DNA of 45,184 bases, from contig JAULZJ010000092.1 of the NCBI GenBank assembly GCA_032117435.1, positions 1 through 45,184 of the forward strand, in the 5' to 3' direction. This document shows positions 537-22,232 of this stretch, one piece after another; the first letter of the stretch is position 1; the number at the start of each line of letters is the position of its first letter. This DNA is from Candidatus Nanopelagicales bacterium. GTDB lineage: Bacteria > Actinomycetota > Actinomycetes > S36-B12. A program made the position numbers and the translations under genes. Below the pieces are notes generated by a model, which did no database searches, had not been told where the DNA came from, and worked only from the letters and a program-made list of their open reading frames with translations.

Positions 537-562
537 CCATGCGGGCGCCGGGGCGGGGATGC

Positions 563-3475: not shown

Positions 3476-3507
3476 GGATTCTTCCCTTCTCGTGGGTGAA
3501 CGGCTGA

Positions 3508-4299
3508 TCATGTGGTGCGCACGGTGATCGGGCCGAGTCGATCGAAGTCGGCGCGGAAGACGTCGCCTGCCTGGAAGGGAACGGCGGCGTGTAGGGCGCC
3601 CGTCATGATGATGGCCCCCGCGGGAAGGGCGACCCCGAGCGGGTGGAGCGTGTTGGCAAGCCAGGCGACGGCATCGATAGGGCCGCCGAGCGCGGCCGCG
3701 CCTGCGCCCGTCGCGACCAGCTCGCCATTGCGGGTGAAGACCATGCCGATGAGGGCGGGATCGAAGTCGGCGAGCGGCACGACCGTGCGTCCGAAGGCAA
3801 CGGCGCCATTGGAGGCCAGGTCCGAGATGGTGTCCGCCAGCGTGATCTTCCAGTCGGCGATGCGACTGTCGACGATCTCCAAGGCAGCGACAAGGCCGCG
3901 CGTCGCCTCCCAAGCTTGCGTGACCGTGCAATGCGGGCCCGAGAGCGGCGTGTCGAGCACGACGCAGATCTCGGCCTCCATGCGCGGCGCGATATAGCGG
4001 TCGGTCGGGACCTCTCCGCCATCGGCGTAGACGGTCGATCCCAGGACGGGCGCATAGTCGGGTTGGTCCACCCCGAGCATCTCCTGCATCGGCTTGCTCG
4101 TGAGCCCGAGCTTGTAACCGATGATGGTGTCGCCTTCGGCGAGCAGGCCTTCCACCAAACCCTGCTGGACGGCGTAGGCGTCTACGACGGTCATGCCCGG
4201 AAAGCGATCGGTCAGGGGAGCGATCGGCGTTCGATCTCGGCGCGCGGCGAGCAGCGCCTGCGACATCTCGCGGACCTGATCTGCGTTGGGTCTGGTCAC
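3508..4299 (-). CDS. dmpE: 2-oxopent-4-enoate (2-keto-4-pentenoate) hydratase
   Basis: 263 aa ([32 protein letters not shown]...), MhpD/XylJ family. It is first in a dmpEFGHI-ordered block. Confidence 0.85.
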
Positions 4300-5120
4300 G
4301 GGCTTCCCTCTCCTGCGGATCGTCGGGGTGTTCGTGGATCTCGGTAGCCGAGGCGACGACTCACCGCCATGGCCGCGTCGACGGCAGGCCTGGCGAAGCG
4401 ACGGAGCGAGTCGCTTCCGAGACGCTGCACGGGGCCGACGATCGAGAGAGCCGCGATCACGTCACCGCGCTCATTGCGCACGGGAGCCGCGATGGAGGCT
4501 GCCCCCAACTCGGACTCGTTCACATTCTCGGCCCACCCCTGGCGTCGGATCTCCACGAGAGTGCTGCGCAAGGCCCGTGGATCGGTGATCGTGTACGGGG
4601 TCTTGCGCTCGAGTCGCCAGCCGTGCAGCAGGGCGTCCAGTTCCTCCTGTGGCAGGTAGGCCAGGAGGAGTTTGCCCGTGCTGGTGCAGTGTGCGTCGTT
4701 TCGGTGGCCGACGCGGCCAAAGAGACGCAGCGTCTGCGGGCTCTCCCGCCGCTCGACGTAGACGACCTCGCGCCCATCGAGGACGGCGACCTGGACCGTC
4801 TCCCTAGTGGCATTGCGCAGTTGGTCGATGACGGGCGAGCAGGCCTCGTGGAGGTCGTTATGGAGCGCGACCGATGCACCTAACTCGTACATCGCAAGGC
4901 CCAGGCGGTACGCTCCCGTGTCGGGATCCTGCTCAAGGAGACGCTCTTCGGCAAGCGTGCTCAGGAGCCGATGCGCGGTGCTCTTGCCGATCCCCAGGCG
5001 CCGTGACAACTCGGTGACGCCGATGTCCCGGTCGCCCCGGCCGAACTCCTTGAGTAGGCGCGCCGCATTGCGCACGCTGGACAGGGTGGAGTGCTGCCGT
5101 CGAGGCTCCGGGGCGGTCAT
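4296..5120 (-). CDS. IclR-family transcriptional regulator
   Basis: ATG at 5120 gives [26 protein letters not shown]...[23 protein letters not shown]. This is a winged HTH followed by an IclR effector domain ([21 protein letters not shown]). The ORF extension to 5525 was rejected. Confidence 0.9.
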
Positions 5121-5800
5121 GGCGCTGTCCTCAGGTGCTGCAGCAGGGCACGGCGTGCGTCCGCTGGATCGACATCGGGGCCCAGGTCGAGGCCGGGGGC
5201 GACGGCCTGGGCGAGCAGTACCTGTGAGCGAGGTAGGCCGGCGACATGCGCGCCCTGCATCTCGTCGACGAGTGACTCGCGTCCCGGTGCATGCGCACGA
5301 ATGGCGTCGAAGTCCCGCGCTGCCGCTGCATGGGAGTGCGCGAGACCGGTGCCCGCGTGCAGGGCATGGTGGGCAGTGAGGCTGCTGCCCGGGGGGACTG
5401 CCAGGTGGTAGACAACGGTGCGAATGCCGAGTGCGCGGCGTACCTCGTTGTGATTCGGGCCCCCAGACTCGTCGATGAGCCCGAGGTCGGGTGCGACGAC
5501 AGGGTCGAAGAAGCGCAGTGTCCACGCGACGTCTTGCAGGGAGTCCTGCAGCTGCACCTCCTGGCCGGAGGGTGCGGGGAGTGACTCCACCGTGCCGATC
5601 ACGTGGAGCATGCGTGCGCCGGCGGCAGCGACGGTGAGGCCCTCCGCCGATGTGAGCGGGAGTCGTGCGCGCTCCGCGGGGGGAAGGGTGAGGACGGCGT
5701 CGAGGTAGGCCTGATGCAGCGCACGGACATAGTCGGCCATGGCCTGGCGCATCGCCTCGGGTCCCTCCACGCGCGGGAACGTATCAGATACGTCCCGCAT
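5117..5800 (-). CDS. hypothetical protein, first gene of the minus-strand operon (start uncertain: 5800, 5752 or 5821)
   Basis: ORF 5117..5926 trimmed because the 5' end would overlap the divergent dioxygenase start. High GC3. The stop overlaps the iclR start in an ATGA arrangement. His-rich segment HHALHAGTGLAHSH. I recognise no family. Confidence 0.5.
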   Translation of the reverse strand: MRDVSDTFPRVEGPEAMRQAMADYVRALHQAYLDAVLTLPPAERARLPLTSAEGLTVAAAGARMLHVIGTVESLPAPSGQEVQLQDSLQDVAWTLRFFDPVVAPDLGLIDESGGPNHNEVRRALGIRTVVYHLAVPPGSSLTAHHALHAGTGLAHSHAAAARDFDAIRAHAPGRESLVDEMQGAHVAGLPRSQVLLAQAVAPGLDLGPDVDPADARRALLQHLRTAP

Positions 5801-5830
5801 GCGGGAACGTCGTCCTTCCATGCGGGACAC
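5773..5830. promoter_or_regulatory. operator-like palindrome and repeat cluster in the divergent promoter region
   Basis: A perfect 7-1-7 palindrome ACGTATC-A-GATACGT (5779-5793) is flanked by GCGGGA/CCCGC. A perfect 12-nt palindrome CCCGCATGCGGG lies at 5794-5805. GCGGGA(A)C occurs three times (5773, 5801, 5822). A TAGATT -10-like hexamer lies at 5838-5843. Confidence 0.35.
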
Positions 5831-5885
5831 GGGCACCCTAGATTGCGAACCACGAGAGCGGCCATCCGGCCCGAGGGGAGCGACG

Positions 5886-6794
5886 ATGGGAATCCTGCGC
5901 TTGGCGCACGTCGACATCACGGTCACGGATCTCGATCTGGCGTCTGCGTACTACACCGAGGTCATGGGCATGCTCGAAGTCGAGCGCGACGACAACTCGG
6001 TCTACCTGAAGTGCTGGGACGAGGTGGACCATCACTCCCTGCGCATCTCCTACGCGCCGCGCGTGGGCTTCGATCTCATGTCCTTCAAGGTCCTGCGCGA
6101 GGACGATCTCGCCGACCTCGAGAATGCCGTCGGCAAATACGGCTTCCCCGTGGAGCGCATCAGCAAGGGTTCGTCCATCGGCCAGGGCGAGTCCATCCGC
6201 TTCGAAACTCCATCCGGTCAGGTCATGGAACTCGTCCACGACGTGGAGAAAATCGGCCGCGCCACGGGATCACTGAATCCCGCGCCCTTCGCCGAAGGAA
6301 TGCGCGGCATCGCGCCACCGCGGATGGATCACCTCCTCGTCACAGCGGAGGAGGTCGGGGAGTCCACTAAATTCTTCACGGACGTGCTGGGGTTCCGGGT
6401 CACGGAGCAGTTGCTGGACGGTGATGGGCATCAGGCGGCGACGTGGATGGAGCGTTCGCACTCCCCGCACGACCTCGCGATCGTCTCGGGGCCCAATGGA
6501 GGTCTCCACCACTTCGCCTACTGGCTGGACGACTGGGATCACGTGCGTCGCTCGGCTGACATCCTCGCGTACAACGGCATCCAGATCGACGTGGGTCCGA
6601 CGCGTCACGGCATCACGCGTGGCAACACCATCTACTTCTTCGACCCGCTCGGCACGCGCAACGAGGTGTTTACTGGCGGCTACCGTCCCGATCCGGATTT
6701 CCCGACCATCACGTGGACCGAGGACAACATCGGACGGGCCGTCTTCTACTACGAGGGCGAGCTCAACGAGAGATTCATGAAGGTGCACACCTGA
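5886..6794 (+). CDS. catechol 2,3-dioxygenase (type I extradiol dioxygenase), paralog 1
   Basis: ATG at 5886 follows GGGGAG. MGILRLAHVDITVTDLDLASAYYTEVMG...HHFAYW...YFFDPLGTRNE shows two-module VOC architecture with His/His/Glu metal-ligand contexts. Confidence 0.9.
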   Translation: MGILRLAHVDITVTDLDLASAYYTEVMGMLEVERDDNSVYLKCWDEVDHHSLRISYAPRVGFDLMSFKVLREDDLADLENAVGKYGFPVERISKGSSIGQGESIRFETPSGQVMELVHDVEKIGRATGSLNPAPFAEGMRGIAPPRMDHLLVTAEEVGESTKFFTDVLGFRVTEQLLDGDGHQAATWMERSHSPHDLAIVSGPNGGLHHFAYWLDDWDHVRRSADILAYNGIQIDVGPTRHGITRGNTIYFFDPLGTRNEVFTGGYRPDPDFPTITWTEDNIGRAVFYYEGELNERFMKVHT

Positions 6795-7705
6795 TGTCGA
6801 TACTGCGTCTGTCCCATGTCGAGATCAAGGTCCCCGACCTCGAGCTCGCCACCGCGTACTACACCGAGGTGGTCGGGCTCGTCGAGACCGCCCGCGAGCC
6901 TGAGCGCGTGTATCTCAAGTGCTGGGATGAGCATCAGCATCACTCGCTCGTCCTTGCCTACTCCCCGTCCTATGGCCTGGCACATATGGGCTGGAAGGTC
7001 GAGAGCCTTGAGGATCTCGACTTCTATGCTGCTCGACTCCAGGAGGCCGGTATTGCCGTCACTCGGCTGGCGGGGGCGGACGTCGGGATCGGCGGGGGCT
7101 CGGTGGTGCGCTTCGAGACACCTTCGGGCCACCAGATGGAACTCATTCACGGGATGGAGCAGGTGGGCAACCTCCTCCCGCTCACCAATCCCCCTCCTCG
7201 CCCCATGGGTCTTGTCGGTATCGCTCCTCCGCGGCTGGACCACATCTTCATCACCGTCGAGAACGTCAACGGCATGACGACCTTCCTCCAGGACGTCCTG
7301 GACTTCCACCTCACGGAGCAGGTGATGGGAGACGATGGCTTCCAGATAGCGACCTGGCTCGAGGTCTCGCACTCCTCCCACGACATCGCCCTTGTCACCG
7401 GACCCGACGGCGGACTCCATCACTTCGCCTTCTGGGTCGATGACTGGAATGACATCCGTACGGCATCCGATGTCCTCGCCTATCACGGAGTCAGGATCGA
7501 GACCAACCCCACACGCCACGGAGCCACCCGTGGGCATTGCGTCTACTTCTTCGACCCTGCGGGCAATCGCAACGAGGTATTAACCGGAGGATATTGGGCT
7601 GATCCGGACGAGCCGCCCATCACCTGGACCGAGGGTGAGATGGGCAGGGCGCTGTTCTATTACGACGGCGTCGTCAACCAGCGCTTCCTCACGGTGCACA
7701 GCTAG
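6794..7705 (+). CDS. catechol 2,3-dioxygenase (type I extradiol dioxygenase), paralog 2
   Basis: The start overlaps the paralog 1 stop (TGATG). MSILRLSHVEIKVPDLELATAYYTEVVG...HHFAFW...YFFDPAGNRNE aligns collinearly with paralog 1. Roughly half or more of positions are identical by eye. Confidence 0.9.
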   Translation: MSILRLSHVEIKVPDLELATAYYTEVVGLVETAREPERVYLKCWDEHQHHSLVLAYSPSYGLAHMGWKVESLEDLDFYAARLQEAGIAVTRLAGADVGIGGGSVVRFETPSGHQMELIHGMEQVGNLLPLTNPPPRPMGLVGIAPPRLDHIFITVENVNGMTTFLQDVLDFHLTEQVMGDDGFQIATWLEVSHSSHDIALVTGPDGGLHHFAFWVDDWNDIRTASDVLAYHGVRIETNPTRHGATRGHCVYFFDPAGNRNEVLTGGYWADPDEPPITWTEGEMGRALFYYDGVVNQRFLTVHS

Positions 7706-7712
7706 GAGTCCC

Positions 7713-8819
7713 ATGACGATGACCGAGCCCGATCTCCCGGTGACGCTCCCGCGCACCGAGCGCCCCGATGCCCCGGCGTACCTGCAGAAGTACCTCGATC
7801 GCGAGGCCCGAGGCGCCCGCCCCGGTGTCGCCGTGTCCGCCCAGGCTGGCGATGAGACCCCGCTCTACCTGCGCCGCTTCCGCGACCGTCGCACGACGGG
7901 TACGGTGCTCGATTCCCCCGTGCCCCTGTGGGAGGGAGCGGATGTGGGTGCCACGCGTGCCTGGGCCGAGGTCACGCGCACGAAGGAGATCGTGCCGGAG
8001 CGCAAGGACCAGACAAAAGCGGCCGTCACCGACGTCTACTTCGTCCGTCACGGCGAGACCCAGGGCTACTCCACGGAGTCCGGTCTCACCCCGCTGGGCT
8101 CGTGGCAGGCGCATCGACGCGGCAAGGAGCTCGCCCGCCGAATCATGTCCGGACACCACGTCACCATGGCCTGCGCCAATACCAACCGCGCGCGGCAGAC
8201 CGCCGAGGGCATCCGCAAGGGCATGCTCGACGAACTCGTGCTCTTCGGCCGCGATGCCACTGTCGGCGAGGTGGAGGCCTACGAGGAGTTTCGCAATTTC
8301 CAGGTGATGACCCCTGATGGGTTCCGCGATGTCACGCAGGCGTTTCGCGCCTACCACGCGGAGATGGAGAAGTACGAGCGCATCGGGCTGGGTGGCCGGC
8401 CCACGTGGCTGGTCGAGGTGGATCGATTCTGGGGCATCCAGCAGGCCGGCGGCGATCCCATCACCCACTGGCTGACGATGCCGATGCTCACCTTCGAGCC
8501 CCCGGTTGCGGCGGTCCGACGCTTCTGGGCCGGGCTCATGCGACTCCACGCCGAGACGCCCGGTCAATCCGTGATCGTGGCGACGCACTCCGGGCCGATT
8601 CGAGCCTTCGCCACCTGGGCGCTGGGCTACGACCCGGGTGAGCCCTTCAACACCGAGTTCGTGCGCGTGCGACTGCTGGAGGGTGGCGAGACCGCTCTGG
8701 TTCTCTACCGCAATCGCGTGCAGGAAGTGTCCGTGCCCGACTTCGACGGCTTGCCCGACTGGTGGGCCGGCCTCGAGGGACGTGCCCTCCCAGTGAGTCG
8801 ACGGGGGGAGTCGTCATGA
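7713..8819 (+). CDS. histidine phosphatase (phosphoglycerate-mutase-like) family protein with ~110-aa N-terminal extension
   Basis: AGGAG lies upstream of ATG 7713. The RHG catalytic motif (YFVRHGETQG, His codon 8049-8051) appears only at residues 112-114. A second conserved His lies in IVATHSGPIRAF. The stop overlaps the next gene's start (ATGA). Confidence 0.8.
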   Translation: MTMTEPDLPVTLPRTERPDAPAYLQKYLDREARGARPGVAVSAQAGDETPLYLRRFRDRRTTGTVLDSPVPLWEGADVGATRAWAEVTRTKEIVPERKDQTKAAVTDVYFVRHGETQGYSTESGLTPLGSWQAHRRGKELARRIMSGHHVTMACANTNRARQTAEGIRKGMLDELVLFGRDATVGEVEAYEEFRNFQVMTPDGFRDVTQAFRAYHAEMEKYERIGLGGRPTWLVEVDRFWGIQQAGGDPITHWLTMPMLTFEPPVAAVRRFWAGLMRLHAETPGQSVIVATHSGPIRAFATWALGYDPGEPFNTEFVRVRLLEGGETALVLYRNRVQEVSVPDFDGLPDWWAGLEGRALPVSRRGESS

Positions 8820-9895
8820 GTGGTTACACGATGTGGTTCGAGGGCTACTGGCCAGGACTCAAGGGCGAGGTCGGCGGCAAGGCAGCGAGTCTCGGCGAGA
8901 TGACCGGCGCCGGCCTGCCCGTGCCCCCCGGGTTCGCCGTCACGACCGCGGGCTACCGAGCCGCACACGATGCCGCAGACCTCGACGCCACCCTCGCGCG
9001 CCTACTCCACGGGCTGGATGTCTCCGACACCGCCCAGGTGAGCGCGGTTTGCGGTGAGATCCGCGATGCCATCCGCCAGATGCCGCTCCCGACAGAAGTC
9101 GAGCAGCAGATCAGGCACGACTACGACGAGTTGTCTCGGCGGTGCGATGTGGGAGATATCCCCGTTGCCGTGCGATCGTCGGCAACGTCGGAGGATTCGC
9201 CTGATGCGTCATTCGCCGGTGAGCATGACACGTACCTGTGGATCCGCGGGGGCGACGCCGTCGTCGACGCGGTAAGGCGTTGCTGGGCCAGCCTCTTCAC
9301 CGATCGCGCGACCTGCTATCGGGTGGAGATGGGCTACGAGCACCGCTCGGTCGAAATGGCCGTGGTGATCCAGAAGATGGTTCGTCCGATCGCCGCGGGC
9401 GTGGCGTTCACACTGAATCCATCCAACGGTGATCGTTCGCAGGTAGCGGTCGACGCCGCCTGGGGCTTCGGGGAGGGAGTGGTCTCGGGTGAGATCACAC
9501 CGGACAACTTCCTCGTGGACAAGGTGATGCTCGAGGTGAGCAAGCGCGAGATCAGCCATAAGGCACATGAGTACTGCCTCTCCGACCACGACACGGTGGA
9601 GAAGGTGGAGACGGATCCGGAACGGGCCGATAGCCCGTGCCTCACCGATCCCCAGCTCAAGGCAATCGCCACGCTCGCGAAGACCGCGGAGAGACACTAC
9701 GGCTGCCCCCAGGACATCGAGTGGGCGGTGGATGCCGATCTCGCTGATGGAGACAACGTCATCCTCCTTCAGGCGCGGCCCGAGACGGTGTGGAGCAAGA
9801 AGCAGCGGAAGTCCGTCGCGGGTTCCGCGGACAAGAACCCCATGGCAAGCATCGTCTCGACATTGATGAATCCGCTGTACGCGCGCAAGGACTAG
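8816..9895 (+). CDS. PEP-synthase/PPDK N-terminal ATP-grasp domain protein (phenylphosphate synthase beta-subunit-like)
   Basis: 359 aa carrying the PPDK_N signatures GGKAASLGEM, VAVRSSATSEDSPDASFAGEHDTYL, CWASLFTDRA, MAVVIQKMV, WGFGEGVVSGEITPDNF and QDIEWAV. It has no swivel-His domain and no PEP/pyruvate domain. Confidence 0.85.
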   Translation: MSGYTMWFEGYWPGLKGEVGGKAASLGEMTGAGLPVPPGFAVTTAGYRAAHDAADLDATLARLLHGLDVSDTAQVSAVCGEIRDAIRQMPLPTEVEQQIRHDYDELSRRCDVGDIPVAVRSSATSEDSPDASFAGEHDTYLWIRGGDAVVDAVRRCWASLFTDRATCYRVEMGYEHRSVEMAVVIQKMVRPIAAGVAFTLNPSNGDRSQVAVDAAWGFGEGVVSGEITPDNFLVDKVMLEVSKREISHKAHEYCLSDHDTVEKVETDPERADSPCLTDPQLKAIATLAKTAERHYGCPQDIEWAVDADLADGDNVILLQARPETVWSKKQRKSVAGSADKNPMASIVSTLMNPLYARKD

Positions 9896-9970
9896 TGAAG
9901 GATCGCACCACTAAGAGCAAGGTCACACGCTTCGTGCCCCCCGGACACGAACCCACGAGAGGAAATGCAG

Positions 9971-11782
9971 ATGGCCGATCGGTTCCCCAGCCCGTTCGAC
10001 ATCGAGACGCCTGCGGGCGCCGAGGGTTGGCAAGACATGTACGTCTACTCCTCGCTCTTCAGCGAGTCTCGCAAGGAGTTCGAGGATTCGATCTTCTGGT
10101 TCCAGGACGGAGTTCACTGGCCCAAGGTCCTCACGCCCTGGGATGCGACCTTCTACGAATTCGCGATCGCCTCGCTGTCGCAGTACAACACCCGACATCT
10201 CCAGGTGCCCCCGGCCAACGGCATCGCCTTCCGCATCCTCAACGGCTACGGCTACCTCACCCCCGTGCCCGCGGATCCCGCGACTATCGAGACCCGCGTC
10301 GAGAACTTCATGGATCGCGCCGGCTTCTACTTCATGAACTGGAACGATCTCTACGACAAGTGGATGATCAAGATCCGCGACCTGGTGAAGGAACTCGAGA
10401 GTGTGAACTTCGAGCCTCTGCCGGAGATCGAGGATGCGGACGACATCGTCAAGTCCGGCGCGGGCCTCGGATCCGGCTACCACATCCAGGAGAACTACCG
10501 CACCCTCCTCGACCTCGCACTGAAGCTGTGGAACTACCACTTCGAGTTCCTCAATCTTGGGTACGCCGCCTACCTCGACTTCTTCGGCTTCTGCAAGCAG
10601 GCCTTCCCGGGCATCCCGGACCTGGCCATCGCGAAGATGGTCGCTGGCGTCGAGGTCGACCTCTTCCGTCCCGATGAGGAGCTCAAGCGCCTTGCCCGGG
10701 TCGCGCTCGAGAGCGGTGTCGCGGAAGCGTTCGCCGTGGGCGATGTGGAGCAGACCTGCGAGATCCTCAAGGGCTCGGATGCCGGGCGTGCCTGGATCGC
10801 GTCGTTCCAGGAGTCCGCAGAGCCGTGGTTCAACTTCTCGACCGGCTCGGGCTTCTACCACTCCGACAAGATCTGGATCGAGAACGTCGAGATCCCCTTC
10901 GAGTTCATCAACGACTACATCGTCAAGCTGCAGTCCGGCGAGGATCTGGCCCGCCCGATGGCGGCGATCCACGCCGAGCGAGATCGCGTCGTGGGCGAGT
11001 ACACCGAGCTGCTGGCGACCGATGAGGATCGCGAGGCCTTCCAGGCAAAGCTGGGGCTTGCGCGCGTGGTCTTCCCCTACGTGGAGAACCACAACTTCTA
11101 TGTCGAGCACTGGAGTCACTCGGTGATCTGGCGCAAGATGCGCCAGCTGGGCGAGGTCTTCGTCAAGGAGGGCTTCTGGAGCGAGCCCAATGACATCTTC
11201 TATCTCAAGCGCACCGAGGTTGAGGATGCTCTCTGGGACTACTACGTCTCCTGGGCGACGCCGGAGCCGGCAGCTGGCCCGGGCCGCTGGCCGGCGATCA
11301 TCGACAAGCGCAAGGGCATCGTCAAGGCCCTGAGCGCCTGGAAGCCGGTGCCGGCGCTCGGAGCGCCGCCCGAGGTGATCACCGAGCCCTTCACCGTCAT
11401 GCTCTGGGGCATCACCTCGGACAGCGTCGGTGCCTGGCTCGGTGGTGGCGACGCCAAGGAGGGGGAGCTGCGCGGCATGGCGGCCTCGCCCGGCCTGGTC
11501 GAGGGGCCAGCCCGCGTGATCTTCTCCCCGGAGCAGATCGGCGAGATCCAGCAGGGCGAGATCCTCGTGGCCCCGCTGACGGCACCCTCGTGGGCGCCGA
11601 TCTTCGGCAAGATCCTGGCGACGGTCACGGACACCGGCGGCATGATGAGCCACGCCGCCATCGTCTGCCGCGAGTACGGCCTGCCGGCCGTCACCGGCAC
11701 GGGCTTCGCCACCACCAACATCCAGACGGGCCAGCGCATCCGCGTCGACGGCAACAATGGAGTCGTCACCGTCATCGAGTAG
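9971..11782 (+). CDS. PEP-utilising-enzyme mobile (phospho-His) domain protein with large N-terminal domain (phenylphosphate synthase alpha-subunit-like)
   Basis: The last ~105 aa (GMAASPGLVEGPARVI...TDTGGMMSHAAIVCREYGLPAVTG) are a swivel domain with its catalytic His codon at 11651-11653. The ~500-aa N-terminal region is not recognisable as a PEP/pyruvate TIM barrel. ATG 9971 has better AGAGGA spacing than ATG 9965. Confidence 0.8.
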   Translation: MADRFPSPFDIETPAGAEGWQDMYVYSSLFSESRKEFEDSIFWFQDGVHWPKVLTPWDATFYEFAIASLSQYNTRHLQVPPANGIAFRILNGYGYLTPVPADPATIETRVENFMDRAGFYFMNWNDLYDKWMIKIRDLVKELESVNFEPLPEIEDADDIVKSGAGLGSGYHIQENYRTLLDLALKLWNYHFEFLNLGYAAYLDFFGFCKQAFPGIPDLAIAKMVAGVEVDLFRPDEELKRLARVALESGVAEAFAVGDVEQTCEILKGSDAGRAWIASFQESAEPWFNFSTGSGFYHSDKIWIENVEIPFEFINDYIVKLQSGEDLARPMAAIHAERDRVVGEYTELLATDEDREAFQAKLGLARVVFPYVENHNFYVEHWSHSVIWRKMRQLGEVFVKEGFWSEPNDIFYLKRTEVEDALWDYYVSWATPEPAAGPGRWPAIIDKRKGIVKALSAWKPVPALGAPPEVITEPFTVMLWGITSDSVGAWLGGGDAKEGELRGMAASPGLVEGPARVIFSPEQIGEIQQGEILVAPLTAPSWAPIFGKILATVTDTGGMMSHAAIVCREYGLPAVTGTGFATTNIQTGQRIRVDGNNGVVTVIE

Positions 11783-11801
11783 GACCATCGCTTCACCTCT
11801 C

Positions 11802-11835
11802 GGGTGAGGAGGGGACCAAAGCCCCCTCCTCACCC
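11802..11835 (+). terminator. perfect 13-bp GC-rich hairpin after the PpsA-like gene (possible intrinsic terminator or attenuator, no U-tract)
   Basis: GGGTGAGGAGGGG (11802-11814), loop ACCAAAGC, CCCCTCCTCACCC (11823-11835). Confidence 0.4.
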
Positions 11836-11836
11836 T

Positions 11837-11876
11837 GGGTCCCGCGAGGAGGAACGACCACCTCCCCGAGGGACCC
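11837..11876 (+). other. second imperfect hairpin in the same spacer
   Basis: GGGTCCCGCGAGGAGG (11837-11852), loop AACGACCA, CCTCCCCGAGGGACCC (11861-11876). 14 of 16 positions pair. Confidence 0.3.
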
Positions 11877-11943
11877 GGCAATCCCTCATGTGAGCCGCAC
11901 TACCCGGTAGCGTCGAGTCACCGGAGACCTGGAAGGACCGCCC

Positions 11944-13203
11944 ATGCTGACCGTGGAGCAGAACGAAGAACTCACTCGTGTTGGCCCCGGCACCCCGATG
12001 GGGGAGTTGCTGCGCCGCTACTGGTACCCCATTGCCTTCGAGCAGGATTTCGACACGGTTCCGACGAAGACCGTGCGCCTGCTCAGCGAGAACTGGACGC
12101 TCTACAAGACGCCCAAGGGCGGCAAGTACGGGATCGTCGCCGAGGCGTGCCCCCATCGCAGTGCTTCCCTGACCTACGGCGTCGTGCACGAGGACGGGAT
12201 TCGCTGCGGCTACCACGGTTGGAAGTGGGACTTCGAGGGCAATTGCGTCGAGCAGCCGGCGGAGGCGGACAACCAGAACTTCCGTGATCGTGTCAAGCAG
12301 AAGGCGGGCAAGGCCGAGGTCATGGGCGGCATGATCTGGGTCTACGTCGGGCCCGACCCAGCGCCGGAGCTCCCGCGATTCGATGTCTTCGTCATGGACG
12401 GGGTCAAGGACTGCGGCTACGCCACCCTTCCGTGCAACTGGCTTCAGATCATGGAGAACTCCGTCGATCCCCACCACGTGGAGTGGTTGCACGGCTACTA
12501 CTTCAACTTCATGGGGGAGACTCAGGGCTTCGATGCCCCGAAGGCCTTCCAGAAGAAGCACCTCAAGACCGGCTTCGAGGAGATGGAATGGGGCATTCTC
12601 AAGCGGCGTGTGCTCGAGGGTGGTTCGGAGGAGAATGACGACTGGAAGGTCGGCCATCCACTGGTCTTCCCCTACTTCATGCGCGTGGGTGGCGCGGGTA
12701 TCGACCAGATGCAGATCCGCGTGCCCGTCGACGACCGCACGACGTGGAAGCTCTTCTACTCCAATCACGCTCCCGACGCTGGCGCGTGGGAGGCGCAGGA
12801 CCGGCCCGTCGTCTACGAGTACTTCTGGCGTGACGACGAGGGTCGCTTCATCACCGACTACATCGAGGGTCAGGACATCATGGCCTGGGTGAGCCAGGGG
12901 CCGGTCACCGACCGCACGCAGGAGCATCTCGGCCGCTCGGATGCCGGTGTGGCAATGCTGCGCAAGATGTTCAAGGAGAACATGAAGCGGGTCGCCAACG
13001 GCGAGGATCCACTCGGCACCATCCGTGAGAAGCACGACATGATCCCGCTGCCCTGTGAGCGCGACAAGTTCGGCGCCGAGCGCGAGTTCGCCGAAGCCTT
13101 CATCACGATGGGCTCCATGCGCTATAGCCCGCAGAGGCAGCAGCTACTCGACCTGCATGCTGATGCCTGGGCTCGACGCGAGAAGGCCGCCGCGGGTGCG
13201 TGA
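11944..13203 (+). CDS. Rieske non-heme-iron oxygenase, alpha-subunit-only type (phthalate/PaO-like family)
   Basis: 419 aa. The Rieske motif is CPHRSASL...CGYHGWKW (Cys codon 12148-12150). The mononuclear iron motif is NWLQIMENSVDPHHVEWLHG. GGAAGGA precedes the ATG. No beta-subunit gene follows. Confidence 0.9.
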   Translation: MLTVEQNEELTRVGPGTPMGELLRRYWYPIAFEQDFDTVPTKTVRLLSENWTLYKTPKGGKYGIVAEACPHRSASLTYGVVHEDGIRCGYHGWKWDFEGNCVEQPAEADNQNFRDRVKQKAGKAEVMGGMIWVYVGPDPAPELPRFDVFVMDGVKDCGYATLPCNWLQIMENSVDPHHVEWLHGYYFNFMGETQGFDAPKAFQKKHLKTGFEEMEWGILKRRVLEGGSEENDDWKVGHPLVFPYFMRVGGAGIDQMQIRVPVDDRTTWKLFYSNHAPDAGAWEAQDRPVVYEYFWRDDEGRFITDYIEGQDIMAWVSQGPVTDRTQEHLGRSDAGVAMLRKMFKENMKRVANGEDPLGTIREKHDMIPLPCERDKFGAEREFAEAFITMGSMRYSPQRQQLLDLHADAWARREKAAAGA

Positions 13204-13276
13204 TGACATCGATGGGAATCGCAGTCGGGCCGGCGGAGCCGCCCCGCTTGGCGATCCGAGTCCGGCGAGGATCCCC

Positions 13277-13531
13277 TTGAGCGACCTCCCGCCTGACCCC
13301 CACCGGCTCCCGCCTCCGGGGGCGTGGTTCGCCGGTGATGCAGAGCGGCACCTGCTCGACAAGCCGAAGTTCTGCCCCATGTGCGCTGCCAGCATCGAGG
13401 TGCACGGTGGCATCTCCACGGAGTACTGGGTGTCTGACCAGCGGGTCTTCATGACCTGGTGTGGTGAGTGCGGGTGGTTCGGCGATGTCGTGCGCTACGA
13501 CATGGTGACTATCACCGAGGAGGAGCACTGA
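13277..13531 (+). CDS. small 4-Cys zinc-ribbon/rubredoxin-like protein (start uncertain: TTG 13277 or GTG 13196)
   Basis: This is the C-terminal part of ORF 13055..13531: LSDLPPDPHRL...KFCPMCAASIEVHGG...MTWCGECGWFGDVV...EEEH. GC3 is high from about 13277 onward and lower upstream. GAGGA lies 5 nt before the TTG. Confidence 0.5.
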   Translation: MSDLPPDPHRLPPPGAWFAGDAERHLLDKPKFCPMCAASIEVHGGISTEYWVSDQRVFMTWCGECGWFGDVVRYDMVTITEEEH

Positions 13532-14169
13532 CCGCTCTCGTCTTCGACTTCGGCGGTCCTGTCCTGCTCACCCCCTTCGAGTTGCGCTCCGTGGGCGAGA
13601 GGTCGCTGGGCCTGGAGCCGGGCACCTTCGCGTGGACCGGGCCCTTCGGCCCTGACTCCGATCGCGACTGGGTCGACTTCCAAGCCGGCGCCATGAACGA
13701 GCGAGATTACTGGGCTCGTCGGTGCCAGGAGTTCCACGCTCTCAGTGGCGAGCCCGCGCAGATGCCCGCCTTCATGGCGCACCTGTACTCGGGCACCGAG
13801 GAGGAGTTGGTACGTCCTGCCGCACGTGAGCTCATTGCGGATGCCAAGGCCGCGGGCATCCCAGTCGGGATGCTCACCAATGACCTCACGGCGTTCCATG
13901 ATCAGTCATGGCTCGACCGGATGACGATCCTGCGCGAGTTCGACCAGATGGTGGACGGGCGCACGGACGGTGTACTCAAGCCCGACCCCCGCGCGTACCT
14001 GCTGATGGCTGAGCGGCTGGGTGTCGACGCCACCGAGTGCGTCTTCATCGATGACCAGCCGGGCAATATCGCGGGTGCGCAGGCGGTCGGTATGCGTACC
14101 GTGCACCTGGACCCGGTGGATCCCGAGCCGGGCTTCGTGCAGGCCCGGCACATGCTCGGTCTCACCTGA
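13468..14169 (+). CDS. HAD-superfamily phosphatase/hydrolase (subfamily IA-like)
   Basis: Motif I is VFDFGGPVL, followed by MLTNDL and then KPDPRAYLLMAERLGVDATECVFIDDQPGNI. The ORF-track start is GTG 13468. A CTG at 13528 preceded by GAGGAGGAG would give a typical short N-terminus. Confidence 0.8.
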   Translation: MRVVRRCRALRHGDYHRGGALTALVFDFGGPVLLTPFELRSVGERSLGLEPGTFAWTGPFGPDSDRDWVDFQAGAMNERDYWARRCQEFHALSGEPAQMPAFMAHLYSGTEEELVRPAARELIADAKAAGIPVGMLTNDLTAFHDQSWLDRMTILREFDQMVDGRTDGVLKPDPRAYLLMAERLGVDATECVFIDDQPGNIAGAQAVGMRTVHLDPVDPEPGFVQARHMLGLT

Positions 14170-14178
14170 GGAGGAGAG

Positions 14179-15534
14179 ATGACCCGTCCCTTGCGCGTGG
14201 CCGTCATCGGGTCAGGCCCGTCCGGGATGTACGCCGCCGACGCGTTGCTCGCCCAGGAAGACATCCCGGTGTCCGTGGACATCATCGACAAGCTGCCGAC
14301 CCCCTTCGGCCTGGTGCGCTACGGCGTGGCCCCGGACCACCTGAGCATCCGCTCGGTGCGGGACACGCTCGACAAGGTGCTCGACCAACCCGGCGTGAGG
14401 TTCCTGGGGAATGTCGAGGTGGGCGTCGACATCAGCCTGCCTCAGCTTCGCCAGTTCTACGATGCGATCGTCCTGACGTACGGCGCCTCGCGTGATCGAC
14501 TGCTCGGGATCCCTGGAGAGCAGCTGGCCGGCAGTATCGCCGCGACGGACTTCGTCAATTGGTACACGGGACATCCCGACATGGACCCCGAGGCGTTCGT
14601 CGACTTCCTGACATCATCATCGCGCGTGGCCGTGATCGGCGTGGGGAATGTCGCGGTCGACGTCACGCGTGTGCTGTCCAAATCCCCGTCGGAGATCGAG
14701 CACACGGACATGCCGGACCACGTATTCACTGCCCTGCGGGCTTCAGGCGTGCGTGATGTGCATCTCATCGGTCGGCGTGGGCCTGCTCAGGCCACGTGGA
14801 CGACGAAGGAGTTGCGCGAGTTGGGTGATCTCGAGGCCACGCAGGTGCTGATCGCCGAGGGCGCCTCGGTCGACGACCCGGCCAGTCAGCGAGCGATCGC
14901 GGGAGACAAAGCGGTGGCGCGCAATGTCACCGTGGTCGAGGGTTGGAGTGAGCGCATCGAGGATGGTCGTGAGCGACGTATCCACCTGCATTTCCGCTGC
15001 CGTCCAGTCGAGATCCTGGGTGCCGAGCGCGTCGAGGGGCTCGTCGTCGAGGTCACCGAGGTCGACGAGGCCGGACAGGCGACCGGGACGGGAGATACCC
15101 ACGTCATCCCCGTCGATGCCGTGATCCGCAGCGTGGGCTATCGCGGCACCTCAATAGCGGGCGTGCCCTTCGACGACCGTCGCAATGTCATCCCCAACGA
15201 CCAGGGTCGTGTGATGGACGGCGAGGAGCGCGTGCCCGGCTTGTACGTCGCCGGTTGGATCAAGCGCGGCCCCACGGGGATCATCGGCACCAACAAGAAG
15301 GACGCGGTGCAGACCGTCGCCTGCCTGATCGAGGATCTCGCAGACCCTGCGACATGGACAGCGACGCGTCCGGATCCCGCGGATGTGGACGCTGCCCTGA
15401 GCGGCCAGCGTGTGGTGGACATCGAGGGGTGGCGACGCATCGATGCCGCGGAGCGTGCCCTGGGCGCCTCATGCGGCCGAGAGCGCACAACCCTGCATGA
15501 ACGTCCGGCCATGCTGGCGGCTGCCGCCGACTAG
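14179..15534 (+). CDS. NADPH-ferredoxin reductase, FprA/adrenodoxin-reductase type
   Basis: 451 aa. It has VAVIGSGPSGMYAA (FAD GxGxxG), VAVIGVGNVAVDVTR (NADP) and GWIKRGPTGIIGTNKKDA. GAGGAGGAGAG precedes the ATG. Confidence 0.9.
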   Translation: MTRPLRVAVIGSGPSGMYAADALLAQEDIPVSVDIIDKLPTPFGLVRYGVAPDHLSIRSVRDTLDKVLDQPGVRFLGNVEVGVDISLPQLRQFYDAIVLTYGASRDRLLGIPGEQLAGSIAATDFVNWYTGHPDMDPEAFVDFLTSSSRVAVIGVGNVAVDVTRVLSKSPSEIEHTDMPDHVFTALRASGVRDVHLIGRRGPAQATWTTKELRELGDLEATQVLIAEGASVDDPASQRAIAGDKAVARNVTVVEGWSERIEDGRERRIHLHFRCRPVEILGAERVEGLVVEVTEVDEAGQATGTGDTHVIPVDAVIRSVGYRGTSIAGVPFDDRRNVIPNDQGRVMDGEERVPGLYVAGWIKRGPTGIIGTNKKDAVQTVACLIEDLADPATWTATRPDPADVDAALSGQRVVDIEGWRRIDAAERALGASCGRERTTLHERPAMLAAAAD

Positions 15535-16355
15535 GCGCCCGGCTTCACCTGCCAGGAGGCGCACGGCTCGTCGTCGCCGCCGCAGGACACGGGCCGTGCA
15601 GGACCCGCTGTCCGCGCAAGACGCACAGGGGGCAGGTCGCCCATACGCACGATGGCCTCGGTGTCGCTCTCGGTCTTGGTGACGCGTGTGGGGTCAGGTG
15701 CGGCTCCGCGAGCGAGCAGGGCGGCCTCGGCCGCCTGAACGGTCGGGCTGAGTGCGCTCCTGCCGCGAAGCCACGGTGCCGAGTCGGCGGATGGGCCGCG
15801 CATGATCAGATCACGGGCCACCTGGGGCGTGAGCCTCCCGTAGACCAGACCGTGTGGGACGAGCAGTGCCGTGGGCGCGAAGCGATGCCCACCGAGGTGG
15901 GAGGACTCCCACACCCCGGGAACATCGCCGAGTGCTTCCACCAGAGCCCGCCCGTCGAGCCCGCAGCACAGGTCACGCGAGGCGTTGGTGCAGACGGCGA
16001 GGACCGGTGCCTGCGGGTCCGTCGAGGCCCATGCCGGGCCCTCGATCGGCCAGGTGAGGAGGTCCTCGGGATCGTCGGCGACGGCGAGTCGAGTGGGAGG
16101 GTCGTCAGGCAGGGCACCGGCGATCCACACCCGCAGCGGGACTCGGGTGTCGACGGCAGGGTGGCGACCGGGTCTGCGCACCAGGAGGACACGGCGTGCG
16201 TCATCGGAGGCCAGCTTGCGCACGGCGGCGATCCGGCATTCGGCCACGGCGTTGCGGCCCCATGACCCGGGCACCTCGATGAGCCACCACCAGCGGGCGC
16301 GCGGAGCGGTGCCCGCGAGGACCTCATCGGCGGCGGTCTCCCGGCATCGCATCAA
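15531..16355 (-). CDS. sucrase/ferredoxin-like (thioredoxin-like [2Fe-2S]) family protein
   Basis: 274 aa with [12 protein letters not shown]...[11 protein letters not shown], characteristic of the Suc_Fer-like family. Its start overlaps the parC stop by 4 nt. Confidence 0.75.
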
Positions 16356-18781
16356 CGCGGCGGCCCGGCGACGTGGGCGACCGGACCGCTGAGGGGAGAG
16401 CCGGAGGCATCTCGCTTGTCGAGCGTGCTGGACAGGTCGAGGGGAGCGCCAGAAGCCGCTGAGGCGCGCACGGGTCCGGCGCCTGCCCAGCCCAGGATGA
16501 GGACGTCCTCGAAGCGCAGGAAGCGATGGATGCGCACCCCTCCCGTCCCGCGACCCTTGCGGGGTACGTCGGCCAGGGACGTGACCTTGGCCGTGAGCGC
16601 GGACGTCCCGGGGAGCGCCGATCGCGAGCCCGCCACGGTGACGATGACCGCGTCGGGATCATCGGCCGGGACTGCGCAGCACGCGATGAGCTCGGCTCCC
16701 GGTGCGAGTCGCATCCCGGCCATGCCGCCCGCCGCGCGACCCTGCGGGCGGACGGCATCGGCGGGGAATCGGAGGGCCTGGGCATCGGAGGTCATCAGGA
16801 CGATGTCGTCACCGGGTGACGTCTCCTGGGCCCCGACGACCTCGTCGTCATCGGCGAGGGGCATGAGATCCCAGTCGCGTCGGGTGGGCGGCCCCTGCAC
16901 GGCGACGCGCTTGACGATGCCCTGGCGCGTGGCGAGGACGATGACCGCGGGGGGCTCGCTGACTTCGGCCAGGCCCACCACGCGCTCGTCGGCCTCGAGG
17001 TCGAGCAGTGCCCCGAGCGGCGCTCCGCCCGCAAGCGCGGGGGCGTGCGCGGTCGGTGGCAGGATGGGCATCTCCACGACGGGCAGGCGGAGCGCCCGAC
17101 CTCGGTTGGTGACCACGGCCACCTCGCCACGCCCCGTGGCCACCGTGGCGCTCACGATGACATCGTGGGCTGCGCGTGGTCCCGAGTCGGCGATGTCGGC
17201 TGCGTTGGTGCGCGCGATGAGGCCCGTGCCGGACAGGAGTACGCGGCACGGCGAGTCCGAGATCTCCAATGATTGGGAAGTGGTCGCGCTTGCGGGCGTG
17301 CCCGCATCCTCGAGCAGGATCGTGCGCCGAGGCGTGGAGTGCTCCTCGGCTACGGCGAGCAACTCATCCGCGACGACTTCGCGCAACCGCGCCTCGTCGT
17401 CGATGATCGCCGTAAGGAACCCGATAGTGCGGCTGAGTTCATCGCGCTCGCTCTCCAGCTCGATCCGGGAGAACTTCGTCAAGCGGCGCAGGGGCATCTC
17501 GAGGATGTATGACGCCTGGTCGTGGGAGAGGTCGAAGACCGTCATGAGCCGCTCGCGAGCGGCCGCCGTGTCGTCGCTCGCGCGGATGAGCTGGATCACC
17601 TCGTCGATGTCCAGGATGGCGATGAGCAAGCCTTCGACGAGATGCAGGCGGTCCTCTGCGCGCGCACGACGATGCTCGCTGCGGCGACGGACTACCTCGC
17701 GGCGATGGTCGACGAAGACCTCGAGGAGCTCGCGCAGTCCCAGGGTCCTCGGCTCGCCCTCCACCAGAGCGACCGCATTGATGGTGAAGGGATCCTCGAG
17801 GGGAGTCATCCGGTAGAGCTGCTCCAGCATGGCCTCGGGATTAACTGAGGGGGCGAGTTCGATGACGAGGCGCAGCCCGTGCTCACCATCGGTGAGATCG
17901 AGCAGGTCGGAGATTCCCTGGAGCTTCTTCGCCTGCACCAGGTCCTTGATCCGCTCGATCACCCGCTCGGGGCCGACGCCCGGGGGCAGCTCGGTGACGA
18001 CGATGCCTCGGCGCCGGGGGCTGACCTGCTCGATCCGCGCAGTCGCGCGCACCCGGAAGGAGCCCCGGCCACTGGCGTAGGCCTCGCGCACACCGGCGAG
18101 TCCGAGGATGGTGCCGCCGCCGGGAAGGTCCGGCCCCGGGACGAAGCGAATGAGGTCCTCGAGCGTCGCATCGGGGTTGAGCACGAGGTGGCGGGCTGCG
18201 GCCACCACCTCGCCGAGGTTATGCGGTGCCATCGACGTGGCCATGCCGACCGCGATGCCGGCCGCTCCGTTGACGAGGAGGGCCGGGAATCCCGCGGGGA
18301 GCACCGTGGGCTCGAGCTCACGCCCGTCGTAATTGGGGACGAAGTCGACGACATCCTCGTCCAGGGATTCGGCCAGGGCGAGTGCCGAGGGTGCCAGCCT
18401 GCATTCGGTGTAGCGCATGGCGGCAGGGCCATCATCGGGGGAGCCGAAGTTGCCATGCCCGTCCACGAGGGGAAGCCGCAGTGTGAAGGGCTGGGCCAGG
18501 CGGACAAGGGCGTCGTAGATAGCCGAGTCCCCATGCGGATGCAGCCGGCCCATAACCTCGCCCACCACGCGGGCGCTCTTGACGTGGCCCCGATCAGGGC
18601 GAAGCCCCATCTGGTGCATCTGGAAGACGATGCGCCGCTGGACGGGCTTGAGGCCATCCCGCGCATCGGGAAGGGCGCGCGAGTAGATGACCGAGTAGGC
18701 GTACTCGAGGAAGGAGGAGCGCATCTCGGTGTCGACATCGACGTCGATGATGCGATCGACCGCTTCACCCTTGCGCGCCAC
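16352..18781 (-). CDS. parC: DNA topoisomerase IV subunit A (GyrA/ParC family)
   Basis: [33 protein letters not shown]...[10 protein letters not shown] (catalytic Tyr context), with a C-terminal beta-pinwheel. The GTG at 18781 is preceded by GGAGGAGGAGG and is preferred over the ORF-track start at 18853. Confidence 0.9.
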
Positions 18782-21554: not shown

Positions 21555-21558
21555 CCCG

Positions 21559-22179: not shown

Positions 22180-22232
22180 TGGGGCCTCCTTGACCGGATG
22201 GGCATTCGTCGAGGTCAGACGTTATCCGACGA

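Follow-up and report, generated by a model that had tools for sequence, protein, structure and literature searches.

A conserved actinobacterial gene cluster joins a phenolic-dikinase-type gene pair to a Rieske oxygenase and meta-cleavage enzymes: a candidate ATP-dependent route from phenols to catechol

Several bacteria use two-component dikinases to phosphorylate a phenolic hydroxyl group and take the phosphate off again once the following conversion is done (PMC12167813, PMC9618137, PMC9549646). In the 4-cresol pathway of Corynebacterium glutamicum, the kinase CreHI acts together with the CreJEF P450 system and the phosphohydrolase CreD (PMC9549646, PMC7764795; Du et al. 2016, as cited by PMC12167813). 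The P450 CreJ oxidises the phosphorylated alkylphenol, CreD strips the phosphate (PMC9549646), and the operon has the gene order creJ-I-H-G-F-E-D-C (PMC7764795). In Ensifer adhaerens HP1, the molybdenum hydroxylase HpdA hydroxylates the ring of 3-hydroxypyridine, and a pair of proteins with PEP-utilizer and PPDK_N domains is genetically essential for this step (bioRxiv 10.1101/2020.01.08.898148). A 2025 review of the dikinase subfamily names the Hpe, Cre and Pps systems only, and the reason why aerobes spend ATP on phosphorylating phenols before degrading them has been stated to be unclear (PMC12167813). Here we describe a gene cluster in a 45,184-nt stretch of DNA from a Candidatus Nanopelagicales bacterium (contig JAULZJ010000092.1 of assembly GCA_032117435.1; hereafter the window), in which the genes of such a kinase pair are followed by a Rieske oxygenase gene and preceded by the genes of two catechol 2,3-dioxygenases (C23Os).

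A first-pass annotation of the window, made from its letters only, knew of no described pathway with this logic and cited members of the kinase family from anaerobes. The claim of no precedent was mistaken, given the CreHI-CreJEF-CreD route for 4-cresol and the HpeHI/Acv and 3-hydroxypyridine precedents; the family is not confined to anaerobes, for CreHI and HpeHI are both enzymes of aerobic organisms (PMC12167813, PMC9618137). In the literature searched, we found no report of an aryl phosphate as the substrate of a Rieske oxygenase and no system in which a dikinase is combined with a Rieske oxygenase and with extradiol cleavage; most subscription papers lay outside this coverage, and the absence is not proof.

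Positions are given in the numbering of the window, and domains of the open reading frames were assigned with Pfam and NCBIfam profiles. These searches recovered the named domains for all nine plus-strand frames between 5886 and 15534, with the spacing and order first described: nine same-strand genes separated by short gaps and overlapping stop and start codons (in order, −4, 7, −4, 69, 161 and 73 nt, an overlap, and 9 nt). The divergent operon that had been described as an IclR gene plus dmpEFGHI-like genes was supported by profile matches; the description had missed a 227-aa protein and a Rieske-type ferredoxin. The minus-strand operon is transcribed in the order His-rich 227-aa gene, IclR, DmpE, DmpF, DmpG, DmpH, DmpI and Rieske-type ferredoxin. 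The two operons make up one catabolic unit of about 186-15534, outside which the window holds housekeeping genes, with topoisomerase IV to the right of the cluster (Table 1).

Conservation of the cluster was analysed in two sets of loci obtained in opposite search directions. The genome set, with one genome per species, was queried with the large kinase subunit and yielded 80 loci (66-98% identity); the metagenome set consisted of 80 contig loci found from the Rieske protein. The counts that follow refer to assessable loci, namely those whose contig was long enough, and required the same order and strand. Around the kinase in genomes, the first C23O was present in 65/65 loci, the second in 68/68, the histidine phosphatase in 69/70, the PPDK_N subunit in 72/73, the Rieske oxygenase in 63/63 and a small four-cysteine protein (hereafter the mini-protein) in 62/62; the HAD hydrolase (50/59) and the FprA-type reductase (21/57) were less constant. 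Around the Rieske gene in metagenomes, the corresponding values were 59/59 for the PEP-utilizer subunit, 54/54 for PPDK_N, 45/45 for the histidine phosphatase, 41/41 and 43/43 for the C23Os, 63/63 for the mini-protein and 52/54 for the HAD hydrolase. The conserved core is thus composed of two C23Os, the histidine phosphatase, the PPDK_N/PEP-utilizer pair, the Rieske oxygenase and the mini-protein, and its arrangement is not due to chance, since order and strand recur in both search directions. The first-pass annotation had proposed a look at the neighbourhoods of kinase, Rieske and C23O genes and had regarded a complete lack of linkage between the kinase pair and the Rieske gene in relatives as fatal to its idea; the genes were clearly linked, in 63/63 genome and 59/59 metagenome loci.

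The 80 genome loci are distributed over Nanopelagicales-like metagenome-assembled genomes, Nocardioides, Micromonospora, Blastococcus, Longivirga, Actinokineospora, Streptosporangiaceae, Pseudonocardiales and Acidimicrobiia. Cultured carriers include Nocardioides aquiterrae, Longivirga aurantiaca, Blastococcus jejuensis and Micromonospora globispora. Two more Rieske homologues of ~65% identity are embedded in the same core. Alloactinosynnema sp. L-07 carries the upper genes and, behind them on the same strand, a reductase of the phthalate-dioxygenase-reductase type and DmpE-F-G-H-I-C, so that the whole predicted route from phenol to central metabolism forms one unit there.

The kinase pair comprises a separate ATP-grasp subunit of ~40 kDa and an adjacent swivel subunit of ~70 kDa, the composition that defines the two-component dikinases. 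The large subunit matched NCBIfam PRK08296.1-2 over its full length (829 bits; the family is titled 'hypothetical protein'), and its PEP-utilizers domain occupies the C-terminus (residues 528-599 of 605). Its catalytic motif, GGMMSHAAIVCR, is identical to that of the cre-operon kinases and fits the catalytic-histidine motif GGxxS/CHAAI/V defined for two-component dikinases (PMC12167813). Phosphoenolpyruvate (PEP) synthase, pyruvate phosphate dikinase and rifampicin phosphotransferase were matched in the swivel region only, and the TIM-barrel domain that binds PEP or pyruvate is missing; an identity as PEP synthase or pyruvate phosphate dikinase proper was rejected on this ground. The PPDK_N subunit is 52% identical to its Rhodococcus cre-operon counterpart, and the large subunit is 53% identical to the cre-operon kinase, 48% to Azoarcus PpsA (locus L087), 46% to the Thermomicrobium protein and 44% to an Hpe/Acv-type Rhizobium protein (L089). 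In a neighbour-joining tree, the Rieske-linked kinases formed a clade of their own that is sister to the cre-type. By these features the pair belongs to the two-component phenolic dikinases (PpsAB/CreHI/HpeHI), and phosphorylation activity is predicted.

A nucleotide search of plasmids returned a match of 380 bp only, which led to cre-type operons of Rhodococcus; these served as comparators and are not orthologues. The operons encode an IclR protein, P450, PPDK_N, PEP-utilizer, short-chain dehydrogenase/reductase (SDR), ferredoxin, reductase, HD-domain protein and aldehyde dehydrogenase, which is the content and order of cre. Complete cre-type operons stand at 8164-16912 of L001 and 8212-16911 of L002, both Rhodococcus catabolic plasmids, beside toluene/phenol-type di-iron monooxygenase genes, and the R. 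ruber cre-type operon region is flanked by IS1380 elements.

The oxygenase contains the Rieske motif CxH...CxxH, the 2-His-1-carboxylate iron site and the bridging aspartate (CPHR...CGYHGW and DPHHVEWLH). Its closest PDB entry was phthalate dioxygenase 7fjl (phmmer, E 2e-44); its relationship to every solved member is distant. These motifs aligned with D178/H181/H186 of phthalate dioxygenase, and a downstream aspartate aligned with D349 (reference, PMC8649396). No NCBIfam equivalog of a named Rieske specificity group (phthalate dioxygenase, LigXa, VanA, KshA, CarAa) reached its cut-off, with 57 vs 600 bits at best. Phthalate dioxygenases bind anionic aromatics (PMC8649396), and kinship with them is compatible with an aryl phosphate substrate but proves nothing.

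Electrons would probably be delivered to the oxygenase by the Rieske-type ferredoxin encoded last in the divergent operon. Its best NCBIfam matches are the dioxygenase ferredoxin subunits HcaC/AndAb, and homologues occupy the corresponding position in many loci, where they are kept with either reductase type. A three-component chain, FprA to Rieske ferredoxin to oxygenase, would thereby be completed. The type of reductase depends on the lineage: Nanopelagicales-like loci carry the FprA type, and Nocardioides, Micromonospora and Alloactinosynnema carry the phthalate-dioxygenase-reductase type (NAD_binding_1 + Fer2), an example being 14051-15019 of L083. The mini-protein behind the oxygenase gene keeps the motif CPxC...WCxxC across 72 loci and has a conserved C-terminal E.EH. 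It matched no Pfam or NCBIfam family apart from sub-threshold zinc ribbons, and a single-sequence structure model had a predicted local distance difference test (pLDDT) value of 54; it may be a zinc-ribbon-like accessory subunit of the oxygenase. Three longer 'Rieske' proteins (P0033, P0050, P0072) that resembled fusions of oxygenase and mini-protein were rejected as frameshifted assemblies.

The two phosphatase candidates belong to different superfamilies. The RHGET and THSG motifs of the divergent histidine phosphatase, its long insert and its N-terminal extension are all kept in 73 orthologues; a sequence search of the PDB found no relative, only spurious TAL-effector matches. In the HAD hydrolase, the motifs FDFGGP, TND, KPD and DD are conserved, and the position two residues after the nucleophile aspartate is Gly, not Asp. 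Its start is ambiguous: motif I (FDFGGP) needs the GTG at 13468 or 13474 and hence an overlap of ~60 nt with the mini-protein gene, and this motif would be lost with the start called in metagenomes (equivalent to 13591). In L040 (Longivirga aurantiaca), an additional FAA_hydrolase-family gene lies at 13248-14222, between the mini-protein and HAD genes, and L019, L022, L031, L037-L039 and L042 show the same spacing at this point.

Both C23Os appear to be active enzymes, because all metal-binding and catalytic residues of XylE (Pseudomonas putida) are kept. For the first of them, the match to XylE (1MPY) had an E-value of 5.6e-78, with the ligands H153/H214/E265 and the equivalents of H199/H246/Y255 conserved. 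Hydratase, acylating dehydrogenase, aldolase, decarboxylase and tautomerase of the dmp-type lower pathway are all encoded. Neither a 2-hydroxymuconic-semialdehyde dehydrogenase (DmpC) nor the hydrolase DmpD was found in the window or in window-type loci; DmpC lies within the operon in the Nocardioides, Micromonospora and Alloactinosynnema type.

From the domain identities, catalytic motifs, conserved gene order and family placement observed above, we infer the substrate, the use of its phosphorylated form by the oxygenase, the type of reaction and the place of each phosphatase. A small phenolic of the phenol, cresol or guaiacol class would be the substrate of both divergent operons together. 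As expected from family membership, the dikinase would phosphorylate its hydroxyl group, converting ATP to AMP and inorganic phosphate via the swivel histidine; this would trap a freely diffusing compound in the cell and add an anionic handle. A trapping rationale has been proposed for HpeHI, with sub-micromolar Km values (PMC12167813). The invariant adjacency of the genes suggests that the Rieske system, made up of reductase (FprA type here, phthalate-dioxygenase-reductase type elsewhere), ferredoxin, alpha-only oxygenase and probably the mini-protein, then adds a hydroxyl group ortho to the phosphate ester. No dihydrodiol dehydrogenase was found among the conserved cluster genes, and for this reason the oxygenation is expected to proceed as monooxygenation, as O-demethylation or as self-rearomatising dioxygenation. 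The histidine phosphatase, proposed as a candidate 2-hydroxyaryl phosphate phosphatase on account of its strict conservation and specialised conserved cap, would free the catechol, with the HAD hydrolase as a backup; a phosphatase specific for the product is expected because a futile cycle of kinase and phosphatase must be avoided, and the cap region is highly conserved. At the level of family assignment, the two C23Os would open the ring, and DmpE/F/G/H/I (with DmpC where encoded) would yield pyruvate and acetyl-CoA. The IclR protein would regulate both promoters. HpeH, the large Hpe subunit, exchanges the phosphoryl group between aryl phosphates and free phenols (PMC12167813). By analogy, one possibility is that phosphate is recycled here and that ATP merely primes the cycle.

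We assign this overall scheme of phosphorylation, Rieske oxygenation of the aryl phosphate, dephosphorylation and catechol meta-cleavage a probability of roughly 0.55. The gene-level idea was already contained in the first-pass annotation and fits all comparative tests, namely linkage, the histidine motif, the C23O residues and the fused lower pathway. Among its chemical forms, ortho-hydroxylation is more likely than O-demethylation, and O-demethylation more likely than an eliminating dioxygenation. The specific proposal of ortho-monooxygenation to a 2-hydroxyaryl phosphate is a tentative one, clearly below an even chance.

Several points weigh against the scheme. Next to a flavin or di-iron phenol hydroxylase, ATP-dependent hydroxylation of phenol is expensive. 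For every member of the cluster, the scheme draws on sequence and comparative genomics. It leaves unexplained why there are two C23Os and two phosphatases, why a mini-protein and a His-rich protein are present, and why the reductase type varies with lineage. The oxygenase sequence shows no feature indicating preference for a phosphorylated substrate; of the carboxylate-binding residues of phthalate dioxygenase, Arg231 is kept, Arg207 falls in a gap, and Arg244 aligns with Val beside Lys/His (gapped alignment). The Pfam domains LigXa_C and VanA_C and the automatic names given by the Joint Genome Institute (JGI) suggest an O-demethylase over a ring hydroxylase. Finally, window-type clusters have no 2-hydroxymuconic-semialdehyde dehydrogenase within 10 kb in spite of encoding DmpH and DmpI.

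The O-demethylase reading takes up these annotations directly: a 2-methoxyphenol of the guaiacol type would be phosphorylated, and demethylation of the ortho methoxy group would give the 2-hydroxyaryl phosphate and formaldehyde, followed by catechol. LigXa and VanA, to which the C-terminal part was matched, are both O-demethylases, JGI labels many orthologues of the oxygenase as 5,5'-dehydrodivanillate O-demethylase, and in soil and fresh water methoxyphenols from lignin would make plausible substrates. With catechol phosphate again as the product, the phosphatase and the C23Os are explained equally well. However, the match to LigXa_C is partial (206-262 of 304, 53 bits), that to VanA_C scores a marginal 23.8 bits, ring dioxygenases (phthalate dioxygenase) are the closest relatives over the full length, and the cluster has no conserved formaldehyde-handling gene; we regard this reading as unlikely. 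The variant of the first-pass annotation, in which dioxygenation at the ester-bearing carbon and its neighbour lets phosphate leave spontaneously to give catechol, with the phosphatases as safety valves, agrees with the true dioxygenases among the closest solved relatives of the oxygenase and with the lack of an encoded dihydrodiol dehydrogenase. Eliminating dioxygenases elsewhere release nitrite, sulfite or ammonia spontaneously, and on chemical grounds phosphate is a good leaving group. Nevertheless, the histidine phosphatase is as conserved as kinase and oxygenase (69/70, 45/45) and has a specialised cap, more than is expected of a safety valve, and both the Cre and the Hpe pathway use an enzyme to take off the phosphate once the substrate has been transformed (PMC9549646, PMC9618137). 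Spontaneous elimination is accordingly improbable.

Oxidation of a side chain deserves mention, in view of the sister relationship between the kinase clade and the cre-operon kinases. TsaM is an alpha-only Rieske oxygenase with methyl-group chemistry. This Rieske enzyme acts on 4-methylbenzenesulfonate (PMC10579966), in which methyl and anionic groups are para to each other, an arrangement shared by 4-methylphenyl phosphate. A similar attack on the alkyl group of a 4-alkylphenyl phosphate, rather than the ring, as by the P450 CreJ on cresyl phosphate, would call for alcohol and aldehyde dehydrogenases equivalent to CreG and CreC, which are not in the conserved core, and would lead to 4-hydroxybenzoate, whereas the invariant C23O pair and meta pathway require catechol; we consider it quite improbable. 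Very improbable is the notion that kinase and phosphatase are unrelated passengers, or that the kinase is regulatory or PEP-synthase-like, and that the Rieske enzyme hydroxylates an unphosphorylated aromatic. The 'hypothetical protein' label of PRK08296 and automatic names such as PEP synthase would permit it, but even between distant actinobacterial classes the genes keep their order and strand, whichever gene the search started from, the block contains overlapping stop and start codons, and the large subunit, without the PEP/pyruvate TIM-barrel, resembles PEP synthase in the swivel region only. An arylamine substrate, converted by the kinase to a phosphoamidate from which oxygenation would release the nitrogen, has a counterpart in Desulfatiglans anilini, where a Pps-like enzyme is reported to form phenylphosphoamidate (PMC7500099). 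The nearest relatives of the kinase, however, act on phenols, and among the conserved cluster genes there is none for handling nitrogen, be it glutamine-synthetase-like, an amidase or a deaminase, which makes this the most improbable of the readings considered. A system resembling aniline dioxygenase was rejected, with neither glutamine-synthetase-like nor amidotransferase genes present.

The divergent operon begins with the His-rich protein, whose gene overlaps the IclR gene, the ATG of the latter at 5120 overlapping the stop codon of the former. Approximately 755 homologues of the His-rich protein were found, all unnamed and without Pfam matches, and they share the invariant motif LTAHHAxHAGTGLAHxHA; the protein itself matched neither Pfam nor NCBIfam. 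A confident AlphaFold2 model (pLDDT 89.6, predicted template modelling score (pTM) 0.83) had no meaningful PDB neighbour in a Foldseek search (best E 0.33, TM 0.14). The palindromes and repeats of the divergent promoter region are nested and extend over the start codon of the His-rich gene; they are candidate IclR operators. Consensus scans for promoters and terminators gave nothing above shuffle expectation. Between kinase and oxygenase genes, two strong hairpins fill part of a gap that varies among loci, being 36-49 nt in L013 and L083 (too short for these hairpins) and ~190 nt in L004.

Table 1. Features of the catabolic unit in the window, with the profile, structural or repeat evidence for each
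Feature	Position	Strand	Evidence and remarks
Rieske-type [2Fe-2S] ferredoxin, last gene of divergent operon	186-536	-	Pfam Rieske 4e-13; CxH...CxxH motif
4-Oxalocrotonate tautomerase, DmpI-like	563-778	-	Pfam Tautomerase 7.5e-17
2-Oxo-3-hexenedioate decarboxylase, DmpH-like	769-1548	-	FAA_hydrolase; TIGR03218 catechol_dmpH 266 bits, below cut-off
4-Hydroxy-2-oxovalerate aldolase, DmpG-like	1545-2570	-	HMGL-like + DmpG_comm
Acylating acetaldehyde dehydrogenase, DmpF-like	2567-3505, start approximate	-	AcetDehyd-dimer 4.7e-54
2-Oxopent-4-enoate hydratase, DmpE-like	3508-4299	-	FAA_hydrolase; TIGR03220 catechol_dmpE 256 bits, cut-off 408.8
IclR-family regulator, PcaR/PcaU/PobR-like	4296-5120	-	HTH_IclR + IclR_C; TIGR02431 178 bits, cut-off 284.75
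Conserved His-rich 227-aa protein, first gene of divergent operon	5117-5800	-	Beside IclR in nearly all loci
Palindromes/repeats, divergent promoter region	5773-5828	.	GCGGGAACGTATCaGATACGTCCCGC; CATGCGGGA x2; GTCCCGCATG/CATGCGGGAC; repeat search
Catechol 2,3-dioxygenase 1, type I extradiol	5886-6794	+	TIGR03211 382 bits (cut-off 320)
Catechol 2,3-dioxygenase 2, paralogue of the first	6791-7705	+	TIGR03211 357 bits; 4-nt overlap; same motifs
Divergent histidine-phosphatase-superfamily protein	7713-8819	+	His_Phos_1 2.9e-15; 7-nt gap before
ATP-grasp subunit of predicted two-component dikinase (CreI/HpeI/PpsB equivalent)	8816-9895	+	PPDK_N 1.2e-112, 377 bits; 359 aa; 4-nt overlap with previous gene
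Substrate-binding + swivel-His subunit (CreH/HpeH/PpsA equivalent)	9965-11782	+	PEP-utilizers 3.8e-24; 605 aa; 69-nt gap before
Hairpins: 13-bp perfect stem + 16-bp stem	11802-11876	+	Repeat search; inside the 161-nt kinase-oxygenase gap
Rieske non-heme-iron oxygenase, alpha-only phthalate/LigXa/VanA family	11944-13203	+	Rieske 6e-16, LigXa_C, VanA_C; 161-nt gap before
84-aa mini-protein, 4 invariant Cys	13277-13531	+	CPxC...WCxxC; 73 nt after oxygenase gene; no family
HAD-IA hydrolase, second phosphatase candidate	13468/13474-14169	+	Hydrolase 1.4e-18, TIGR02247-like; overlaps mini-protein gene
FprA/adrenodoxin-reductase-type NADPH:ferredoxin reductase	14179-15534	+	E 5e-103 to M. tuberculosis FprA 1LQT; 9-nt gap

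On its left side the unit is bordered by a beta-carbonic anhydrase-like gene (window 1-185, minus strand; CIDSRIDP motif) that runs off the window edge. On its right, a sucrase/ferredoxin-like gene of the thioredoxin-like 2Fe-2S type (15531-16355, minus strand) is convergent with the FprA gene; most loci that carry FprA and extend far enough have it downstream of the cluster, as do a few FprA-less loci, and it may be a partner of FprA or merely part of a conserved chromosomal neighbourhood beside topoisomerase IV. The G+C content is 0.63-0.67 across the cluster region 5000-15000 and 0.68-0.72 in the adjacent housekeeping region 15000-29000. Horizontal acquisition could account for the lower value, but 29-39 kb is similarly low.

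The cluster is the simplest system so far in which the question of aerobic phenol phosphorylation can be addressed, with the kinase directly ahead of ring hydroxylation and cleavage; it occurs in hundreds of genomes, and several cultured carriers make it experimentally tractable. If the scheme is true, it would represent a new class of phenol-hydroxylating system, in which aryl phosphates would be a new type of Rieske substrate and their conversion a new enzyme reaction, and it would account for the capture of very dilute phenolics, derived from lignin or humic matter, by oligotrophic Actinomycetota of fresh water and soil. A broader claim, that a widespread ATP-dependent phenol-to-catechol route operates in aerobic Actinomycetota including abundant freshwater lineages, with an aryl phosphate ester as the true Rieske substrate and two obligatory partners of no known family, falls a little short of an even chance in our estimate. 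Annotation would also gain, the cluster genes now being labelled PEP synthase, dehydrodivanillate O-demethylase or hypothetical protein.

Of the described systems, Cre is alike in being aerobic and actinobacterial and in its succession of a dikinase, an oxygenase for the aryl phosphate and a phosphatase of its own; identity between the kinase subunits is 52-54%, PPDK_N comes first in both, and an IclR gene adjoins the Rhodococcus versions. The oxygenase there is a side-chain-oxidising P450 with ferredoxin and reductase, in contrast to the Rieske oxygenase here; the phosphatase there has an HD domain, whereas histidine-phosphatase-family and HAD proteins are encoded here; and alcohol and aldehyde dehydrogenases leading to 4-hydroxybenzoate are replaced here by two C23Os and meta-cleavage. 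The P450 CreJ and its partners CreE/CreF were found neither in the window cluster nor in Alloactinosynnema, L085 or L086, and no HD-domain CreD, SDR or benzaldehyde dehydrogenase (CreG/CreC) was found in the core. HpeHI/AcvAB of Rhodococcus rhodochrous GD02 and Sphingobium SYK-6 share the two-component phenolic dikinase in an aerobe, with its trapping or scavenging rationale (PMC12167813), and the phosphate as a transient handle that a HAD-family phosphatase takes off after the next step (PMC9618137). That step is, however, a biotin-dependent carboxylation of an acetyl group, and neither a Rieske nor an extradiol enzyme takes part.

The PpsABC-PpcABCD system of Thauera/Aromatoleum, also present in Azoarcus sp. 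KH32C (L087), has a homologous phenol-phosphorylating kinase (48% large-subunit identity) and HAD-like and small subunits that accompany the downstream enzyme. It differs in its UbiD-type carboxylase, its CBS-domain third kinase protein, its reversed kinase gene order and its lack of O2-dependent enzymes. The carboxylase and the CBS-domain PpsC were present in the Azoarcus locus and found neither in the window nor in related loci. The anaerobic phenol pathway was rejected for the window, which has no UbiD carboxylase and has O2-dependent partners. In the Ensifer 3-hydroxypyridine cluster, a kinase pair is likewise needed to hydroxylate an aromatic ring bearing a hydroxyl group, by a water-using molybdenum hydroxylase instead of the O2-using Rieske oxygenase here. 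A kinase pair of the family on the Thermomicrobium roseum megaplasmid (L088, 9001-17477) lies near a three-subunit enzyme of the xanthine dehydrogenase family, an arrangement recalling that of Ensifer.

With the dmp/xyl operons the cluster shares C23O, DmpE/F/G/H/I (and DmpC in some genera), the logic of gene order and a dedicated regulator. In place of DmpKLMNOP or a flavin phenol hydroxylase it carries kinase, Rieske oxygenase and phosphatases; its C23O is duplicated and the hydrolase branch is absent. Alpha-only Rieske oxygenases such as phthalate dioxygenase, carbazole dioxygenase, LigXa, VanA and DdmC have the same Rieske and mononuclear-iron motifs, no beta subunit and substrates that are often anionic, and carbazole dioxygenase is likewise partnered by a Rieske ferredoxin and a reductase; in contrast to these, the oxygenase described here always has the mini-protein behind it and the kinase beside it. 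The logic of phosphorylating, transforming and dephosphorylating is thus established, and what looks new is its coupling to a Rieske oxygenase, to histidine-phosphatase-family and HAD phosphatases and to meta-cleavage.

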